Part shown: piece by piece, positions 6,747 through 55,853 of the stretch
Numbering within the stretch: position 1 is the stretch's first letter
Layout of the letters: each line of letters starts with the position of its first letter
Source: an uncultured Acidimicrobiaceae bacterium
GTDB taxonomy: Bacteria > Actinomycetota > Acidimicrobiia > Spongiisociales > UBA5794
Reading direction: 5' to 3'
NCBI GenBank assembly: GCA_964460075.1
Contig: CAYWPC010000008.1
Coordinates: forward strand, 19,872-83,871
Length of the DNA stretch: 64,000 nt
Made by a program: the position numbers and the translations under genes
Notes under the pieces: model-generated
Database searches by the model: none
Told to the model about the DNA's origin: nothing
Seen by the model: only the letters and a program-made list of their open reading frames with translations

Positions 6747-7652
6747 TTATCTCCCGAGAAGCGCCCTGGCGAAGAAGATCAGGTTGGCCGGCCGCTCGGC
6801 CAGACGTCTGGTCAGATACGGATACCACGCTTCTCCGTACGGCACGTACACACGAACGTCGTGGCCCAGTCCAACCAGCTCACGCTGTCGATCTCTTCGT
6901 ACGCCGTAGAGCATCTGGAACTCCCACGACTCGGTACGCCTCGTCGCTGCCTCAAGCACGGGTTCGATCCGTCCGTCGTCGTGACTTGCAATAGCAGGAT
7001 GTGTCGTAGCGGAACGCATCAACGAGGAGGCCAACCGGTCATACGATTGGTCGACCTCAGATTTGGACTGGTAGGCAACGTCTTCCGGCTCGGCATAGGC
7101 GCCTTTGCACAGGCGCACGTGGCCACCGAGCGGCATTACTCGCTCAAGGTCCGCTTCGCTTCTGCGCAGATACGCCTGGATCGCGATGCCGAGATTGCCG
7201 TGCTCACGCTGCACGCTCTCGTATATCGAGATCGTCGTTTCCGTGTACATCGAATCTTCCATGTCGATCGTGACCGACATCCCAATTCCGTCGGCGGCTG
7301 CGGCAATGTCACCGACGTGTTCGCGGGCCACACCATCGTCGAGGCCCATGCCGAGTTGCGTCAGCTTGACGGAGATGTTCGCCTCGAGATCGGCTGCATC
7401 GACCGCTGCAACACAGGTTATGTAGGACTCTTTGCAGGCTCTAGCTTCTTCGAGGTTCGAGACGTGCTCACCGAGATGATCGAGCGAAACCTTGAGGCCT
7501 TCATCGTTGAGCAACCGGGCCGCGGCTATTGCATCGTCGAGCGACACACCCGCCACGAAACGCTGTGCGACTCTGCGGCCCATCTTCGTGTCCGTTACGA
7601 GCTTTCTCGTAACGGACCGCTCCGTGACCCCGAGCACCGCAGACCTGATCAC
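6747..7652 (-). CDS. Monofunctional proline dehydrogenase
   Basis: SLDHLGE, ISVKLTQLG, IDME, VRLCKGAY, EFQMLYG, YVPYG...RRLAERPAN; GTGA overlap with the proC stop. Confidence 0.93.
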   Translation of the reverse strand: MIRSAVLGVTERSVTRKLVTDTKMGRRVAQRFVAGVSLDDAIAAARLLNDEGLKVSLDHLGEHVSNLEEARACKESYITCVAAVDAADLEANISVKLTQLGMGLDDGVAREHVGDIAAAADGIGMSVTIDMEDSMYTETTISIYESVQREHGNLGIAIQAYLRRSEADLERVMPLGGHVRLCKGAYAEPEDVAYQSKSEVDQSYDRLASSLMRSATTHPAIASHDDGRIEPVLEAATRRTESWEFQMLYGVRRDRQRELVGLGHDVRVYVPYGEAWYPYLTRRLAERPANLIFFARALLGR

Positions 7653-8464
7653 TCAGATGCCCTCTTCCCGAGTTCCCTCGACCGACGTCCTGCTGCCTGA
7701 ATGGCGTCCTCGACGAGGGCACGGAAGCCGCCCTCCTCGAGCACGTGCATCGCTGCGGCCGTCGTCCCGCCGGGGGACGTCACCTCACCGCGCAGCCGAA
7801 ACGCCGACTTCTCTGAAGCAGCGAGCAGAGCTCCCGCGCCCCACAGGGTCTGGTGTACAAGCTTCTCTGCGGCGTGATGCGGGAGACCTTCGCGTATCGC
7901 TGCTTCGATCATCGACTCTGCCAGCAGGAACACATACGCCGGTCCAGTGCCAGACACGGCGGTGACTGCGTCGAGGAGATCTTCCGTGAGTTCGACCGTC
8001 TCGCCGACAGCGCCAAGGATGGCAGACGCGCGCTGAATGTCGATCTCACCGACACTTGTACCGACGGCGATAGCTGTCATGCCAAGATCCACGGCCGACG
8101 GTGTGTTCGGCATCGCACGGATAATGGGGATGCCGGGAAGCGCGTCCTCGAAGGTGGCGATCGGTACCCCTGCTGCTATCGAGACCACGGTTTGGTTAGG
8201 TTGCATGATCGGCGCGATCGCGTCAAGCACTGATCGAACGTCCTTCGGCTTCACAGCGACGAGGGCTATGTCCTTGTCCTCGGCGGCCTCGCTGAGCGAC
8301 AGCGTTGTGGGAATCCCTGTCGAGTACTCGAGTTCCCTTGCACGCTCCTCGCGCCTCGTCACGAGGGAGATCTCACAGATGTCCCATCCAGCGCGCAGTA
8401 GACCGGATGCGAAAATCTCCCCCATCGATCCTGCGCCGAGCACGGCAACGGTTGGCCTGTCCAT
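7649..8464 (-). CDS. proC: Pyrroline-5-carboxylate reductase
   Basis: GAGSMG Rossmann motif, AVKP, RAMPNTP, SGTGPAY, VTSPGGTT; start reassigned to ATG at 8464. Confidence 0.93.
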   Translation of the reverse strand: MDRPTVAVLGAGSMGEIFASGLLRAGWDICEISLVTRREERARELEYSTGIPTTLSLSEAAEDKDIALVAVKPKDVRSVLDAIAPIMQPNQTVVSIAAGVPIATFEDALPGIPIIRAMPNTPSAVDLGMTAIAVGTSVGEIDIQRASAILGAVGETVELTEDLLDAVTAVSGTGPAYVFLLAESMIEAAIREGLPHHAAEKLVHQTLWGAGALLAASEKSAFRLRGEVTSPGGTTAAAMHVLEEGGFRALVEDAIQAAGRRSRELGKRASE

Positions 8465-8511
8465 GACACGCAGAGTATCGCGGAAACGGCGAGGTACCCT
8501 ATCGTTCGCGT

Positions 8512-9915
8512 GTGGACGACCTTTCCTCAGACGAGTGGGCAGCCTTCTCACCAAATCACGAGCGTTCGGGTTCAACGCGTTTGGGCTTACCTGAGTACAT
8601 TGCGGCGGTGATCGGCGTCCTGATCGTGATCGGTCTCGTCGTGCTGTGGCCGTCGGGGACCGCCAAGGAGACAGCATCTTCGAGTTTCGCCGTCTTGGGC
8701 GTGCCAAGTGAGTTCCACGAGGCAATCGTCACAGAGGTCATCTCTGCTCCATGTCCCAGCACGCCAGACACCGAGTGCAACTCTGTCTCGTTCGAACTCA
8801 CCAAAGGTCCAGAGACCGGACAGTCCTACACACAGGAGTTCACCGCCGACGATATCGTCCCGGATTTCTCCGTCGGCGGCCGAGTCGTGCTGTCACGAAT
8901 TGCCCCTGGCGGCGTAATCGTCGGGCTGAAGGACGCGCCGTGCGCATTCGACCAGGAGGCAACCTGCACCGAGGCCGAATTGCGGCTCTTCACAGGACCG
9001 AACACGGGATCGATTGGCTCGGTGTTGCTGTTCCCTGGCCAGGAAACCGGGCTGTTTCCAACCAGAGAAGTGATGGTCACGTTCGACTTCGACGGCGAGA
9101 TCCTCGCCATTGCACCTGCGACCCTCGAGGCCATGTATCGCTACTCGGACTACCAGCGCCGATGGTTCCTCGCAGCCATCGCCGCCTTGTTCGCATTGGC
9201 CGTGATCGCCCTAGGGAGGTGGAAGGGCTTAGCTGCACTCTCTGGACTCGGCTTGTCGGTCGTGATCATCGTGTTCTGGCTGATTCCATCGCTCATCGAG
9301 GGAAATCCGGCCGTTGCCGTCGCGATGGTTGGAGCATCCGCAGTTGCTTACCTTGCGCTCTATGTGTCCCACGGCGTGAATCGAATGTCGACGATTGCAC
9401 TCCTAGCGACACTCTCTGCCCTGTTTCTCACCACCGGGCTTTCGTGGCTCACGACGGTTCTCGCACAGTTCACCGGATTGGCGACCGAAGAGGCCACGCT
9501 GCTGCTCACAATTCGGGGATTCGATATCCGAGGACTGCTCATTGCAGGGATAGTGATAGGGGCAGCAGGCGCTCTCGACGATGTGACCGTGACACAAGCC
9601 TCAGCCATTGCGGAGATCAGATCTGCGAATCCAAGTATCGGAAACAAGCAACTCTTCGCGCGCGGCATGGCTATCGGGCGTGCCCACGTCGGGTCGATCG
9701 TCAACACGCTCGTCCTCGCCTACCTCGGTGCGGCGCTCCCCCTCACGATCCTGTTCGTACTCGCTCAACAGTCGTTCGGGGCAGTAGCCAACAGCGAGGT
9801 CGTCGCCGTCGAGATCGTTCGTTCCCTCGTCGGAACGATCGGGATCGTGGCTGCGGTCCCACTCGCCACATGGATGGCGACCGTGTGGCCCTCCACGTAC
9901 CGTCACCAACACTGA
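8512..9915 (+). CDS. YibE/F family membrane protein
   Basis: DYQR, GALDDVTVTQAS, HVGSIVNTLVLAYLGAALP and EIVRSLVG motifs. Confidence 0.88.
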   Translation: MDDLSSDEWAAFSPNHERSGSTRLGLPEYIAAVIGVLIVIGLVVLWPSGTAKETASSSFAVLGVPSEFHEAIVTEVISAPCPSTPDTECNSVSFELTKGPETGQSYTQEFTADDIVPDFSVGGRVVLSRIAPGGVIVGLKDAPCAFDQEATCTEAELRLFTGPNTGSIGSVLLFPGQETGLFPTREVMVTFDFDGEILAIAPATLEAMYRYSDYQRRWFLAAIAALFALAVIALGRWKGLAALSGLGLSVVIIVFWLIPSLIEGNPAVAVAMVGASAVAYLALYVSHGVNRMSTIALLATLSALFLTTGLSWLTTVLAQFTGLATEEATLLLTIRGFDIRGLLIAGIVIGAAGALDDVTVTQASAIAEIRSANPSIGNKQLFARGMAIGRAHVGSIVNTLVLAYLGAALPLTILFVLAQQSFGAVANSEVVAVEIVRSLVGTIGIVAAVPLATWMATVWPSTYRHQH

Positions 9916-9928
9916 CGCTGACAAGGCG

Positions 9929-11254
9929 TCACTCCTCGACCGGGTCCGTGGATCCCATCAGTGCACCAATCGCTTCGGCGAACCGGTCACCCATCTTCTC
10001 GTTGTAGCCAACGAGCCTGACACCACGCAACGTCGTCTCATCATCGATGAGGTATTCCGCTACGACCTCGGTAAGGATCAACGTGGCAGCATCGGGGGGG
10101 TATCCGTAAACACCTGCCGAGATTGCGGGTAAAGCCAGCGTGGTGGATCCGATCTCGGTCGCCATGTCGAGGGCGGCCAACGCTGCCGCTGCAAGCAGGT
10201 CTTCGTTGTCCTGGCCCTCGCGATACACCGGCCCTGCCACGTGGATGACGTACGACGACGGCATACGACCCGCCGACGTCAGTGCTGCGACGCCAGGCTG
10301 GATAGGGCCGTGCGCATCGATCCACGATCTCGACTCCTCATCGAGCGTCGGCCCGGCTGCCTTCGCAATCGCAAGTGCAACGCCACCTCCGTGCTCGAGA
10401 TCGACGTTCGCAGCGTTCGTGATGGCATCGACCGCCATCTGCGTGATGTCGCCGACGACGGCCGTAATCGTCGTCTCCCCGACCCGCATTGCAGCGCTCG
10501 CCTCGGCAGGGACATCAATCGTCTCCCAGTCCCTCCCGTCTCGTCTCTGTTCGAGCACGTCTGTGGTGAACCACCGAACCAACCCCGAAGCCTTGAGGTC
10601 GACACCGCAGTCGTGCGCCATGTCGATGACTCGCCGTGCTACGGCTGGTGCTGGATCGATGATCGTCACACCCTCAGGCAGCCGTTCAGCGATCTGGTCC
10701 TCGATGAGCGGGTAATGCGTACAGCCAAGAACGACGACATCTGCTCCCGCATCTGAAATCGCAGGCATGAACCGGTCAAGTAGCACCCCGACATCTGCAC
10801 CGTCCTCAACCGCGGCTGCAAGTCCGGCGCAGGCCTGCTGAACGACCTCAATCCCTTCGGCATGTGCGCCCACGAGCGATCGAAATAGCTCGCCTTGAAA
10901 TGTTGCTTCCGTCGCCAATACCGCAACGACACCGCGTTTCGTGGCCACAGCAGCGGGTTTGACCGCCGGTTCCATACCAACGAATGTGACCTCGGGAAGG
11001 ACACGTCTGAGGTGGCGAAGTGCCGCCGCGGATGCCGAGTTACAAGCAATCACGATGATCTCGACACCGAATGAAACGAGATATCTCGCCAACAACTCGG
11101 TTCGGTCACGAACCTCGTCGAGTGTTCGCTCTCCGTACGGCCCGAACGCGTGATCGGCCACATATACGAGGTCGGCCCACGGAGCTTGCTCCCGAATCGC
11201 CGTGAGAACTGTCGTACCGCCGATCCCGGAATCGAAAACTGCTATCGCCGCCAT
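9929..11254 (-). CDS. murI: Glutamate racemase fused to a C-terminal macrodomain
   Basis: FDSGIGG, PYG, IACNSAS, LGCTHYP (MurI), then GDIT, NAAN, GGGVA, VIHVAGP, PAISAGVYGYP (MacroD-type) in one ORF. Confidence 0.92.
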   Translation of the reverse strand: MAAIAVFDSGIGGTTVLTAIREQAPWADLVYVADHAFGPYGERTLDEVRDRTELLARYLVSFGVEIIVIACNSASAAALRHLRRVLPEVTFVGMEPAVKPAAVATKRGVVAVLATEATFQGELFRSLVGAHAEGIEVVQQACAGLAAAVEDGADVGVLLDRFMPAISDAGADVVVLGCTHYPLIEDQIAERLPEGVTIIDPAPAVARRVIDMAHDCGVDLKASGLVRWFTTDVLEQRRDGRDWETIDVPAEASAAMRVGETTITAVVGDITQMAVDAITNAANVDLEHGGGVALAIAKAAGPTLDEESRSWIDAHGPIQPGVAALTSAGRMPSSYVIHVAGPVYREGQDNEDLLAAAALAALDMATEIGSTTLALPAISAGVYGYPPDAATLILTEVVAEYLIDDETTLRGVRLVGYNEKMGDRFAEAIGALMGSTDPVEE

Positions 11255-11379
11255 CGCATCTCCACCAGTCTGAGATCGACACGCTTATCGAAACGGTGCG
11301 CATCTCGCACGCCACAGATCGCATCATTGACCAGCTGGATGGTACGAGGGTGCCGACCAGCACCATGCGCGCCCACCTG

Positions 11380-11643
11380 TTACTCCGTTGTCATGCCGAA
11401 CAACGACCTCAGCACCTGTGCAACAGCCCAGCCAGCCAATGCCGCAACCGCGTAGTTGGCAACGACGAGCAGAGCGGAGCCGAGAGCATTGGCCGGTGTC
11501 GACTCGACATCGCCGACAGCCCGCAGCAACAACCACCAGCCCCCGATCGCTACCGCACCACCGACCACAGTGACAGCGGCTCGGTGTGTCGCGGCGTGGA
11601 TGAAGCCGAAGATTGCGCCGACGATCAGGACCGTTGGGATCAC
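11380..11643 (-). CDS. Small hypothetical membrane protein
   Basis: Three hydrophobic segments; GTG start at 11643 avoids overlap with the nitroreductase. Confidence 0.55.
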   Translation of the reverse strand: MIPTVLIVGAIFGFIHAATHRAAVTVVGGAVAIGGWWLLLRAVGDVESTPANALGSALLVVANYAVAALAGWAVAQVLRSLFGMTTE

Positions 11644-11677
11644 TATCGCACCAGGTGTGCTCGACACGGCATCAGGG

Positions 11678-12178
11678 TCAGCCCCCGTATGTGTTGTGAT
11701 GAACCAGATCCTCGATGGACTTGCGTCCTCCAAAGCGTGCAGGCCCCGATGCCGGTGCGCGGTACCCGATGGCTATCGCGTATCTGCATCGTCGATCCTC
11801 AGGCAGACCGAGGATCTCTGCAGCGAGCTGCTCGCGATGGAGCGTGATCGGACAGGTGGCCAGGTTGACAGCGTCAGCGGCCAGCATGATGTTCTGAGCA
11901 AGTCTTCCCGTGTCGAACTCGTAGCCATCCGGTTCTTGCACGAGGCAGATCGCTGCCGGCGCGTTCTGGATCGGTGTCGTGAAGTTGCCAGACTCGCACA
12001 GTCGGCTCTTCTGGTCGGGATCGTCAACGACGATGAATGACCAGTTCTGGAGGTTCTTCGATGAGCCCGTCCACCGCGCAGCGTTGAGCACCGCATCGAG
12101 GTCCACGCTCGCTATCGGTCGGTCCTCGAATTCCCTGATCGCTCGCAGAGCCACAATGCCGTCATATCGCTCGTTCAT
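11678..12178 (-). CDS. Nitroreductase family protein
   Basis: RAIREF, SSKNLQNWSFIVV, FDTGRLAQNIMLAA, IAIGY. Confidence 0.88.
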   Translation of the reverse strand: MNERYDGIVALRAIREFEDRPIASVDLDAVLNAARWTGSSKNLQNWSFIVVDDPDQKSRLCESGNFTTPIQNAPAAICLVQEPDGYEFDTGRLAQNIMLAADAVNLATCPITLHREQLAAEILGLPEDRRCRYAIAIGYRAPASGPARFGGRKSIEDLVHHNTYGG

Positions 12179-12280
12179 GCCTCGAACTTTAGACAGCTGA
12201 TCCACGTGGGTCGACAGGCCGGCCTCCACTGGCCGAGGTCGCAGCGCGCGTCCCTGTGAGCCTCAGCAGCGGAATCGCCC

Positions 12281-14083
12281 TTAGAACGCCTCGTCTGGGA
12301 GATCCATCAACCATCCGCTCTCTGCCTGTGCCGCAGCAGTTCGGACTGCGACCTTGGGGAGAGCGTCCGCTGCGAAGAACCGAGCCGATGCGATCTTGCC
12401 GCTGTAGAAGGCAGCATCATCACCGGTTGCTCCCGAGAGTGCGCTCGATGCTACCTCTGCGTGTTCGAGCAGTAGCCAGGAGATCACGACCTCCGAAAGG
12501 CTCTCCAACAGGGCATTGGTGTTGAGGCCGGTCTTGTAGATCTCAGATGGATTCTCCATCGACGCCATCGAGTAGCCGACGAGTGCACCGACATGATTCT
12601 GCACTTGTTCAAGCGCAGCACCGAGGGCGACACGCTCTGTGGCAAACGCATCGGATCCACCCTTGACATACTCGAGGATGCCTTCGGCAAACCGCATCAG
12701 GGTCTGCCCCTGATCTCTCGCGATCTTGCGGAAGAACAGGTCGAGTGCCTGGATCGCCGTCGTGCCCTCGTACAGGGTGTCGATCTTGGCGTCACGGATG
12801 TACTGCTCGATCGGGTAGTCCTGGGTGAACCCTGATCCACCGAACACCTGAAGTGACGTTGCGAGAAGTTCGTAGGCCTTCTCCGATGAGTATCCCTTGA
12901 CCATCGGAAGCAGCAGATCGTTCAACTTGGGCCAATAGGTGTCGTCTGGATCGAGCTTCATCTTGTCGAGGGTCATCGCCGTGTACATCCACAGCGCACG
13001 CAGCCCCTCGGCGTAGGCCTTCTGAAGGATCAGCATGCGGCGAACGTCCGGGTGCTGGATGATCGCCACCTTCGGCGCCGTCTTGTCCATCATCTGGGTC
13101 ATGTCGGCCGACTGGACGCGAACCTTTGCATACTCGAGCGCGTTCAGATAACCGGTCGACAGCGTTGACGCTGATTTGACACCGATCATCATGCGAGCGT
13201 CCTCGATGACGAGGAACATCTGCCTGATGCCCTCGTGGGCATCGCCTACCAGATATCCGACGCATGGTGCGTCCATGCCCATCGTCAATTCGCACGTCGT
13301 TGAGCCGCGAATGCCCATCTTGTGCTCGATGTTGGTCGCGTAGATACCGTTGCGTTCCCCAAGCGAACCGTCCTCATTGACCAGGTACTTGGGCACGATG
13401 AACATCGAGAGCCCCTTGGTCCCCGGTTCACCGCCTTCACGCCTGGCAAGGACAAGGTGAACGATGTTCTCGAAGTAGTCGTTCTCGCCTGAGGTGATGA
13501 ATCGTTTCACCCCTTCGAGGTGGTAGGTGCCGCCCTCGACGTGTATCGCCTTCGATGTCCCAGCGCCGACGTCTGAGCCTGCGTCGGGTTCGGTGAGCAC
13601 CATCGTGGCTCCCCATTGCTTTTCGATCAGCCAACGAGCCCAGGTGTTTCGCTGTTGCTCTGTTCCGACCGAAGCGATGACCCTCGCCATCAGCCCCCCG
13701 GATGCGTACAGGAATACTGCGGGGTTCGCTCCGGTGAACATCTCTCCTGCTGCCCAGCGCAGTGAATCGGGAGCTCCGAAGCCCCCGAGCTCTGGCGGAA
13801 TGCCAAGCAGGTGCCATCCGCCGTCGTAGAGAGCGTCGAGGCTCTTCTTCGTGCTCGCAGGAAGCCTGATCTCACCGTCGACGATTTCGAGAGTCTCTCG
13901 ATCGGCTTCTGCGAAACTTGTGGCGAAGTCTTCGCGAGCAAGCCGTCCCACCTCGCGGAGCGTGTCGCCGGCGGTGTCCTCGTCGAACGAGTCGAAGGGT
14001 GCAACGCCATACCAGTCGCCGACCTTCAAGTACTCGAACAGGTTGAACTCGATGTCTCTGAGATTTGTTTTGTAGTGACTCAT
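12281..14083 (-). CDS. Acyl-CoA dehydrogenase (FadE5-like)
   Basis: MSHYKTNLRDIEFNLFE start, TMVLTEPDAGSDVG, GVKRFIT, EHKMG, QYIRDAKIDTLYEGTT. Confidence 0.93.
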   Translation of the reverse strand: MSHYKTNLRDIEFNLFEYLKVGDWYGVAPFDSFDEDTAGDTLREVGRLAREDFATSFAEADRETLEIVDGEIRLPASTKKSLDALYDGGWHLLGIPPELGGFGAPDSLRWAAGEMFTGANPAVFLYASGGLMARVIASVGTEQQRNTWARWLIEKQWGATMVLTEPDAGSDVGAGTSKAIHVEGGTYHLEGVKRFITSGENDYFENIVHLVLARREGGEPGTKGLSMFIVPKYLVNEDGSLGERNGIYATNIEHKMGIRGSTTCELTMGMDAPCVGYLVGDAHEGIRQMFLVIEDARMMIGVKSASTLSTGYLNALEYAKVRVQSADMTQMMDKTAPKVAIIQHPDVRRMLILQKAYAEGLRALWMYTAMTLDKMKLDPDDTYWPKLNDLLLPMVKGYSSEKAYELLATSLQVFGGSGFTQDYPIEQYIRDAKIDTLYEGTTAIQALDLFFRKIARDQGQTLMRFAEGILEYVKGGSDAFATERVALGAALEQVQNHVGALVGYSMASMENPSEIYKTGLNTNALLESLSEVVISWLLLEHAEVASSALSGATGDDAAFYSGKIASARFFAADALPKVAVRTAAAQAESGWLMDLPDEAF

Positions 14084-14153
14084 TGTGTACCTCACATCCA
14101 CCAACCGAAGTGCGACCGACCATGTCGGCGGTCTGTCGGCAATCTGACCTAAT

Positions 14154-14205
14154 TTGAGTATACACTCCAAGTTTGAGCGGACGCTCATAATTGAGTTCGT
14201 ACTCG
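14154..14205. promoter_or_regulatory. Three tandem palindromic operators (TTGAG-N6-CTC), putative TetR binding sites
   Basis: TGAGTATACACTCC (14155), TGAGCGGACGCTCA (14174) and TGAGTTCGTACTCG (14192) between divergent fadE and tetR; the third overlaps a TTGAGT-N18-TACGAT promoter-like element. Confidence 0.75.
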
Positions 14206-38391: not shown

Positions 38392-38568
38392 GTGCCCCGT
38401 CTGTCGTACAACCTGAGAGATTCACCGCCCTACAGCGGCTTTCACCTTCGGTGAGGGGTCTGCCCTGCTTTCCAGAGGTGCCTCTTCCTCGCGGTCCTTG
38501 TGCCTGAGAGATTCCCGGGACGGTTGCTCCTTCGGCGCCGGCCTGCCGACTCTCCCGCGAGGCGTCAC
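38392..38568 (-). ncRNA. Tandem glycine riboswitch
   Basis: Two aptamers upstream of gcvP: GGGAGAG...GCCGAAGGAGCAA...AATCTCTCAGG and CTCTGGAAAG...CACCGAAGGTGAA...AATCTCTCAGGT. Confidence 0.93.
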
Positions 38569-55626: not shown

Positions 55627-55700
55627 GGGCCTGTAGCTCCAATTGGTAGAGCAGCGGACTTTTAATCCGAAGCGTGTGGGTTCGAGTCCCACCGGGCCCA
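55627..55700 (+). tRNA. tRNA-Lys (UUU)
   Basis: Acceptor stem GGGCCTG/CGGGCCC, D-arm, anticodon loop CTTTTAA, GGTTCGAGTCC T-loop; CCA not fully encoded. Confidence 0.95.
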
Positions 55701-55853
55701 CCGTGCGGAATCCCGACGCGCGCACCAGGCTTGTGGCCCGGTGACTGTAGCCCTACTCCCAGGCTGATATCTCGAACTGGAACGCATCCATGCTCCACTC
55801 TGGGTCGCGTCATCAAGGTACCCACGGGAGAACTGGCAATGAAGGCGACTCCC

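Follow-up and report, generated by a model that had tools for sequence, protein, structure and literature searches.

Glutamate racemase, MurI, is essential and serves as a target of antibiotics, and how it is regulated is in several respects still debated. Its catalytic residues are the two cysteines of the CN(S/T)A and GCTH motifs together with the DSG loop, and the Escherichia coli enzyme is activated by UDP-MurNAc-L-Ala. Macrodomains are an equally textbook family, and we know of no physiological partner for most of those found in bacteria. The interest of the gene described here lies in the union of the two. It is located in a stretch of 64,000 nucleotides from an uncultured Acidimicrobiaceae bacterium of the Acidimicrobiia (GenBank assembly GCA_964460075.1, contig CAYWPC010000008.1, positions 19,872 to 83,871 of the forward strand), hereafter the window, where a single open reading frame at 9929..11254 on the minus strand encodes a MurI followed directly by a macrodomain. 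Here, we show that the two domains are genuinely fused, that the fusion is conserved and evolves under purifying selection, and that it was built within one bacterial family from two neighbouring genes.

The solved macrodomains closest to the one in the window belong to a class with human and viral members. The passages of PMC10499325 on PARP14 macrodomain 1 (MD1), PARP9 MD1 and SARS-CoV-2 Mac1 present them as active hydrolases that are specific for glutamate-linked ADP-ribose and act also on ADP-ribosylated nucleic-acid ends; PARP14 MD1 is moreover said there to reverse the modification of its own polypeptide. Our full-text search, which covered articles without their supplements, found no paper on a fusion of MurI with a macrodomain or on ADP-ribosylation of MurI. 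The review of bacterial ADP-ribosylation in PMC8120803 uses the words 'racemase' and 'peptidoglycan' 0 times each, and PMC12363236, which mentions racemases of Acidimicrobiia, reports no fusion.

One reading frame encodes both domains

The gene and the parts of its product discussed below are the following.

9929..11254, minus strand: fused murI-macro gene, a single open reading frame of 441 codons, with a TGA-class stop at 9929-9931
10565..11254, minus strand: MurI core, residues 1-230 (TIGR00067, PF01177, VIA-align to 3hfr_A)
11228-11233, minus strand: MurI D8/S9 (codon check)
11042-11044, minus strand: MurI catalytic C71, in the IACNSA motif
10721-10723, minus strand: MurI catalytic C178, in the GCTHYP motif
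10715-10717, minus strand: MurI H180 (codon check)
10502..10564, minus strand: remodelled junction, residues 231-251 (junction comparison, structure prediction)
10526-10528, minus strand: W243, clade-specific, at least 90% conserved in 116 proteins
10514-10516, minus strand: D247, clade-specific, at least 90% conserved in 116 proteins
9947..10501, minus strand: PARP14-MD1-like macrodomain, residues about 252-436 (PF01661, match to the PDB sequence 3vfq, VIA-align)
10376-10378, minus strand: Ala293, where YmdB has Asp; invariant in 116 fused proteins

Both the list of open reading frames and the translation give an uninterrupted product of 441 amino acids (aa). Pfam matches Asp_Glu_race (PF01177) to residues 19-208 (E 8e-21) and Macro (PF01661) to residues 280-391 (E 1.6e-32). 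The initial annotation had read the locus in this way, as one frame holding MurI and a macrodomain, and the frame, Pfam and the glutamate racemase model TIGR00067 bear it out. The position that it gave for the macrodomain, about 9929-10489, is close to the span obtained by structural alignment, 9947-10504 (residues about 251-436). A codon-by-codon check found every motif that it had named, i.e. IACNSA and GCTHYP in MurI and GDIT, NAAN, GGGV and ISAGVYG in the macrodomain, and both MurI cysteines are intact at the level of codons. The frame is the sole match to the MurI model and the sole match to the Macro model in the whole assembly (2.31 Mb, 96.5% complete). Hence, it would have to supply the D-glutamate of the cell as well as any macrodomain function.

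The fusion is conserved and under purifying selection

A search of a collection of 5.8 billion proteins gave 6288 hits, and all of the 120 relatives listed from it (62-73% identity, 431-477 aa) carry both PF01177 and PF01661. They come from many independent metagenome assemblies, and those that are named are annotated as glutamate racemase or macro domain-containing protein of Acidimicrobiia or Actinomycetota. Within the family of the window (f1), an uninterrupted full-length match occurs in 42 of 111 genomes, counting the window's own (G000). The fused genomes are spread over genera g1 (9), g8 (8), g6 (7), g13 (8), g11 (3) and g15 (7), and two further open fragments span the junction at contig ends.

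An independently assembled contig is identical to ours over 9800-11400 (0 differences, word depth 24). The comparison drew on the only public DNA run that holds the stretch, which is probably the source sample, so that the agreement tests the assembler and not the biology; no RNA run is listed as containing it. Selection was estimated from ratios of nonsynonymous to synonymous substitution rates (dN/dS; Nei-Gojobori, own script). In the least saturated pair of fused genomes, G006/G007, the ratio is 0.087 in MurI, 0.061 in the junction and 0.16 in the macrodomain. Five more fused pairs, with dS near saturation, give 0.06-0.09 in MurI and 0.15-0.20 in the macrodomain.

The racemase half

TIGR00067, an equivalog model of glutamate racemase, is matched over positions 1-223 of 251 with 149.1 bits, a narrow pass of its cut-off of 146.65. 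An alignment of 116 fused proteins shows no variation at D8, S9, C71, C178 or H180. In the predicted structure the MurI part aligns with 3hfr_A over 248 residues (VIA-align Z 32.3, root-mean-square deviation (rmsd) 1.9 A). It has the two-lobed Asp/Glu racemase fold, with solved MurI chains at Z 29-32 and Foldseek TM scores (target) of 0.76-0.87. The protein thus shares its cysteines, D8/S9, H180 and fold with the MurI/RacE enzymes of Mycobacterium tuberculosis (5hj7), M. smegmatis (5ijw) and Listeria monocytogenes (3hfr), and this half is 33-36% identical to the mycobacterial ones. It differs from them by an extra C-terminal macrodomain of 190 residues. In the window's clade it also differs from known MurI by the replacement of the canonical C-terminal helix and of the TTGDPxRF motif. 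Relative to the MurI of its own relatives, four otherwise invariant positions are altered (G5A, L14T, Q35H, V69I). As the only MurI match of a 96.5%-complete genome, the fused protein presumably racemises L- and D-glutamate.

MurI is fused elsewhere to other domains: Sua5/YrdC (Sua5/YciO/YrdC), DUF3090, DNA_alkylation, Peptidase_C26/GATase (N-terminal) and Cys_rich_CWC. The carriers are P0128, P0141, P0169, P0204 and P0213, in proteins of 350-535 aa. These proteins resemble ours in having a MurI core and a second domain, but their partners are unrelated to the macrodomain. MurI thus appears to be a promiscuous partner that tolerates many fusions, and this cautions against reading a mechanism from a fusion alone.

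The macrodomain half

The best PDB sequence match of the macrodomain is PARP14 macrodomain 1 (3vfq, 6.3e-36), which is also among the best by fold. In the predicted structure VIA-align gives Z 30.1 and an rmsd of 1.3 A to 3q6z, against Z 29.3 and 1.1 A to E. coli YmdB (5cb3). Residues D269 (GDIT), N280 and N283 (both in NAAN, 280-283), H288, G290 and G291 (GGGV, 289-292), S379, G381 and Y383 (ISAGVYG) are invariant among the 116 fused proteins.

The domain had initially been called MacroD-type. The motifs behind this name are intact, and so are the fold and the ADP-ribose loops of MacroD/YmdB (D269, G289-291, S379, G381, Y383), yet the Asn and Asp pair of these enzymes is broken at the Asp. 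The Asn and the Tyr mutated in the YmdB entries 5cb5 and 5cms are retained, N283 aligning with the mutated Asn. The Asp after GGGV, one of the two residues changed in 5cb5, is Ala293 in the window. Ala occupies this position in 34 of the 34 macrodomain frames of relatives that matched our motif search, split and fused, and these extend to another family of the order. Since free-standing macro proteins of split relatives share it, the Ala was not caused by the fusion and is ancestral. Coronavirus Mac1 likewise reads GGGVA.

Eleven macrodomain-type NCBIfam models match (E 1e-15 to 1e-42) and none reaches its equivalog cut-off, the best being NF001664 with 143.7 bits against 200. Compared with YmdB/MacroD of E. 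coli (5cb3, 1spv; NF001664), the domain is 38-40% identical over about 170 residues and keeps the NAAN Asn and the GVYGYP Tyr, but it has Ala293 and misses the equivalog cut-off. Compared with PARP14 MD1, both read H-GG-(V/L)-A, both keep the NAAN Asn with its preceding His, and the fold is the same. Their identity is only about 31%, however, and our domain is bacterial and fused to a metabolic enzyme instead of a PARP or a viral polyprotein. On this nearest-neighbour evidence the half is best called a PARP14-MD1/Mac1-like hydrolytic macrodomain and not a MacroD/YmdB equivalog. By analogy with the published human and viral members, it might hydrolyse glutamate-linked mono-ADP-ribose.

CobB-like sirtuins are a source of O-acetyl-ADP-ribose, and the genome holds one SIR2/CobB-like sirtuin gene. 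It contains no match to ADP_ribosyl_GH (PF03747), the DraG-type hydrolase, in a search in which 7 of 14 controls were positive. Searches for DarT (PF14487) and PARP (PF00644) gave no match either, but with 0 of 14 controls positive they are uninformative, and they did not extend to RES/ParT, Arr or exotoxin-type ADP-ribosyltransferases.

A remodelled junction joins the two folds

The fusions of g11 and g15 keep the normal C-terminal motif of MurI, TTGDPxRFxxQIxRL, and run from there straight into the N-terminus of the macrodomain. In the group of the window this motif is replaced by WWTTxxxEDRxDxRDWETIDIP, and over residues 231-251 the canonical C-terminal helix has become coil and a short strand. 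Since the junctions differ between fused lineages, we counted them for more than one event. At seventeen positions the window's clade has a fixed residue other than the one that is dominant elsewhere. Among them are the four MurI changes listed above, W229, W243 and D247 in the junction area, and Q273M in the macrodomain. These 17 changes fit the long stem branch of the clade (0.96 changes per column).

An AlphaFold2 model built on the 116-row alignment has a mean predicted local distance difference test (pLDDT) of 90.2 and a predicted template modelling score (pTM) of 0.89. Confidence is lower only at residues 231-240 (pLDDT about 71) and over the last five residues. It shows a strand at 243-245 and no helix after the last MurI strand. 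The model of an independently fused g11 protein (pLDDT 93.5, pTM 0.78), made from 72 rows of which only 10 span both domains and none belongs to the window's clade, keeps the MurI C-terminal helix at 234-245. In structural alignments solved MurI chains, followed to their own C-termini, cover residues 1 to about 252 of the window's model, and solved macrodomains begin at 250-252. The MurI fold would thus end where the macro fold begins, so that the two are predicted to abut without a free linker.

For docking, the protein was cut at 236/237 and the halves were treated as two chains, each with its own alignment. The complex prediction reached a score of 0.86, whereas the best of 3 controls reached 0.50. 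Of 157 solved complexes 116 attained this mark, as did 2 of 215 mismatched pairs, and both counts are only approximate here, given that we used our own alignment. Three docking runs share at least 90% of their contacts, with a partner pLDDT of at least 92. Fold searches of the PDB listed no solved chain that covers both domains, so the docking pass does not stem from the memory of a like complex. The model supports the binding of the halves and does not show it. In it, the N-terminal strand and the C-terminal helix of the macrodomain pack on MurI helix 45-62, whereas neither the ligand loops of the macrodomain nor the catalytic residues of the racemase are named in the interface. Four of the 17 clade-specific positions (229, 243, 247, 255) lie in this predicted interface, which makes up 45 of 436 residues; these are too few for a test of enrichment.

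The fusion arose from neighbouring genes

In other genera of the family murI and macro are separate open reading frames, murI first and both on one strand. Their halves are orthologous to ours by trees and the macro subtype is the same, but they make two proteins (e.g. in G017, G013 and G200), separated by an overlap or by a gap of at most 69 nt, and their MurI has a normal C-terminus. Of the 24 split pairs that are adjacent, 10 overlap (9 by 4 nt at NTGA, 1 by 1 nt), 7 lie 1-30 nt apart and 7 lie 31-69 nt apart. Four genomes have murI and macro in frame, 3-69 nt apart and separated by one stop, TAA or TGA: G012 (L016), G240 (L038), G244 (L039) and G109 (L027). They could be fusion precursors, fissions, sequencing errors or cases of stop read-through. 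In g3, g34 and g89 the genes lie 3-9 kb apart, and in other genera of the family they are on different contigs. Since sister genera keep the two genes adjacent or overlapping, the fusion arose from an operon pair by loss of the boundary. The family thus offers a natural series from unlinked genes to neighbours, overlapping genes, genes with a single in-frame stop, fused genes and, finally, a structurally entrenched fusion.

The fusion is an invention of this family, and we found none outside it. No match spans both domains in 159 other genomes sampled from the order, where the best non-family row, with rows ordered by E-value, covers MurI only (4.9e-70); the sample includes the unpublished G027 and G182, which were used for counts only. 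Across the phylum, 400 genomes from 253 genera hold no match at E 1e-70 or better and none that spans both domains. Of the 150 best matches from a 50%-identity library with 1.84 billion representatives, only 2 are full-length fusions (P0121, P0122).

A maximum likelihood tree of concatenated MurI and macro sequences from 35 genomes, 14 fused and 21 split, requires 3 changes between these states, all forced by branches with an SH-like approximate likelihood ratio test (SH-aLRT) of at least 95. This tree left out G020 and G024, for which only one of the two genes was available, as well as the additional macro copies in G023 and G205. With 37 macro rows alone, the tree again requires 3 changes, 2 of them forced. 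An approximately unbiased (AU) test rejects the best tree uniting all fused rows (delta lnL 124.9, p 2.8e-7). The fused groups are three: g1 with g8 and g13, part of g11, and g15. Genus g6, which is absent from the tree, probably belongs with g1, g8 and g13, judging from full-length matches of 60-66%. Apparently the boundary was lost more than once, i.e. in three lineages, if not once with later splits.

Two observations concern g15. Its only split member, G241 (L032, G241:C8), has a murI broken across two frames (residues 1-51 and 55-231), so that poor assembly or gene decay may lie behind its split state. In addition to the fusion, two g15 genomes contain a free-standing macro gene (L035, G023:C66; L036, G205:C9). 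It groups with the macro genes of g32 and not with the fused copy of the same genome, which suggests a paralogue or a transfer.

The pair also stays adjacent in five flanking contexts that have nothing in common: between SpoIIE and an alpha-beta hydrolase (G013), near LigD (G018), with a molybdopterin oxidoreductase and PNPOx (G023), with a hydrolase and an ABC transporter (G109), and with a hydrolase and a response regulator (G162). With a tight pair in at least five contexts and a fusion in three lineages, the association of murI with macro goes beyond a chance feature of a single assembly. Separating genes that overlap at NTGA is difficult, and a single indel suffices to fuse them, so that recurrence by itself is only weakly indicative of selection.

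Possible roles of the fused protein

We consider it probable, though not by a wide measure, that the protein is a bifunctional and structurally entrenched enzyme whose heads work independently, MurI making D-glutamate and the macrodomain clearing ADP-ribose esters. The N-terminal head, the only glutamate racemase detected in the cell, would use the two-cysteine mechanism to make the D-glutamate of peptidoglycan. The C-terminal head, the only macrodomain detected, would most likely hydrolyse ADP-ribose esters, with O-acetyl-ADP-ribose from the single CobB-like sirtuin, mono-ADP-ribose on Glu/Asp side chains, or both, as candidate substrates. The history would be that of neighbouring, co-transcribed and often translationally coupled murI and macro genes, a pair typical of this family of Acidimicrobiia, which lost their boundary. 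In the window's lineage the last MurI helix would then have been swapped for a conserved strand-forming segment, making the halves one structural unit. If the model is right, they are probably no longer separable there. Co-expression and structural entrenchment, rather than regulation of one head by the other, would keep the fused state. Independence of the heads is favoured by the lack of linkage between the two genes outside the family, by the unrelated fusion partners of MurI and by the frequent position of the pair inside a housekeeping block. If the heads are indeed independent, this is an ordinary, though well documented, Rosetta-stone fusion. Even so, the series of states is suited to the study of how operon neighbours become one protein and of how a fusion becomes irreversible.

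Several points weigh against this reading. Pairing through five contexts, repeated fusion and a conserved interface could equally reflect a functional partnership. All macro equivalog models fall below their cut-offs, so family assignment does not fix the substrate. The docking score is inflated by the cut at 236/237, which assigns residues 237-251 to the partner chain although they are structurally part of the MurI fold. The contacts of lowest error are accordingly a strand pairing of 228-231 with 243-246 within the MurI fold, and true contacts between macrodomain and MurI are fewer (252-258, 262, 274, 430 and 433 with 54-63). We rejected the comparison of pTM, 0.89 in the window's protein against 0.78 in the g11 protein, as a test of clade-specific rigidity, the alignments differing in depth and makeup. 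As for the history, the classes of overlap and gap depend on macro start codons chosen by a nearest-start heuristic. The AU test concerns a group that was named after the tree was seen. Finally, the three changes of state may equal one fusion and two fissions, and the genomes with an in-frame stop fit either direction.

Alternatively, the macro head might sense ADP-ribose or O-acetyl-ADP-ribose, by-products formed when the sirtuin or ADP-ribosyltransferases consume NAD+, and tune the activity or the dimerisation of the racemase through the fixed interface. This would tie the supply of D-glutamate for the cell wall to the state of NAD+ and acylation. The initial annotation had suggested such a coupling or, as a second possibility, protection against ADP-ribosylating toxins. 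We regard such regulatory coupling as unlikely, though deserving of serious attention. The pair is conserved as a unit across contexts and is often translationally coupled, its fusion is recurrent, the predicted arrangement is rigid with a conserved clade-specific junction, and the residues of the ADP-ribose pocket are fully conserved. Regulation of MurI by a nucleotide sugar is possible in principle, as in PDB entry 2jfn, E. coli MurI with the activator UDP-MurNAc-Ala. But the predicted interface uses the N-terminal strand and the C-terminal helix of the macrodomain and not its ligand loops, and on the MurI side helix 45-62 and the last strand take part in it, not the catalytic cleft. Moreover, N280, H288 and Y383, residues of catalytic type, are retained as expected of an enzyme rather than of a pure sensor, and both the unlinked genes elsewhere and the promiscuity of MurI speak against coupling.

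In its strongest form, which seems to us somewhat less likely, MurI and the macrodomain would be an obligate unit, a complex in split genera and one chain in fused ones, in which the racemase is controlled by whether ADP-ribose or O-acetyl-ADP-ribose occupies the macro pocket. If so, a macrodomain would here for the first time serve as the allosteric sensor of an enzyme of peptidoglycan precursors. It would link the turnover of NAD+ by sirtuins to cell-wall synthesis, in a manner analogous to, but independent of, the activation of E. coli MurI by UDP-MurNAc-L-Ala. Here a macrodomain is kept next to MurI throughout a family, has fused with it repeatedly and is built into its fold in one lineage. 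The system also offers a concrete and cheap test of whether ADP-ribose metabolism communicates with the supply of cell-wall precursors.

One might also speculate that acidic residues of MurI, or of another component of the D-glutamate pathway, are mono-ADP-ribosylated, either by a transferase of the cell itself or by the toxin of a competitor or a phage, and that the macro head removes the modification in cis. The closest solved relatives, of the PARP14 MD1 class, are specific for Glu-ADP-ribose, and MD1 reverses the modification of its own polypeptide according to the passages of PMC10499325 cited above. The only macrodomain of the genome is indeed tethered to an essential enzyme. Yet the sole macrodomain presumably serves general housekeeping, no paper linking MurI to ADP-ribosylation came up in our search, and no ADP-ribosyltransferase was found in the genome, although the DarT and PARP searches are those in which 0 of 14 controls were positive. 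Such a repair function strikes us as improbable.

Hardly more credible, and if anything slightly less so, is a macro head that is mainly a structural or binding module, stabilising MurI after the loss of its C-terminal helix, its hydrolase activity being dispensable or lost. The Asp mutated in YmdB 5cb5 is Ala here, the MurI helix is remodelled, the folds are predicted to abut and dN/dS is higher in the macrodomain than in MurI. But the Ala is ancestral and present both in free-standing macro proteins and in the active PARP14 MD1, the pocket residues are all invariant in 116 proteins, and the genome's sole macrodomain stands beside a sirtuin making O-acetyl-ADP-ribose.

A frameshift or lost stop confined to this contig is refuted by the same open frame in 42 of the 111 family genomes and 120 of the 120 listed relatives, by the second assembler and by purifying selection on the junction. 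The two-gene state of sister genera, together with the four genomes in which just one in-frame stop parts the genes, could have pointed to it, and the initial annotation had named relatives with two separate genes as the mark of a stop loss or an assembly artefact. Such relatives do exist, so that the origin was the loss of a boundary, but this loss is a fixed evolutionary event.

Neighbouring genes and other features of the window

The genes flanking the fused gene are these.

6747-7652, minus strand: proline dehydrogenase (Pfam)
about 7652-8470, minus strand: proC, P5C reductase (Pfam)
8512..9915, plus strand: YibE/F-family membrane protein (PF07907, E 1.8e-68), convergent with the fused gene
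11380-11733, minus strand: frame of 117 aa with no Pfam match, between nitroreductase and murI
11678-12229, minus strand: nitroreductase (Pfam)
12281-14188, minus strand: acyl-CoA dehydrogenase (Pfam)

In genera g8, g13, g11, g36, g9, g4 and g31 the pair sits in a colinear block of acyl-CoA dehydrogenase, nitroreductase, murI, macro, proC and proline dehydrogenase. The members of the block have no evident common function, which weighs against a specific pairing of murI with macro. In sister genera (g8, g13, g11 and others) proC and proline dehydrogenase directly follow macro on the same strand, and the synteny table identifies the YibE/F gene between macro and proC as an insertion specific to the genus of the window. 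Of 8 g1 loci examined by tblastn, 7 contain the frame of 117 aa, which no locus of the other genera does. A scan of 9500-12500 for promoters and terminators returned no terminator and a single promoter-like site, which lies on the wrong strand; this is not above shuffled sequences.

Two features lie farther away. A glycine riboswitch aptamer (RF00504) is found at 38482-38567 on the minus strand, with 73.9 bits against a gathering score of 32. The only tRNA of the window, tRNA-Lys with anticodon TTT, is at 55627-55702 on the plus strand.

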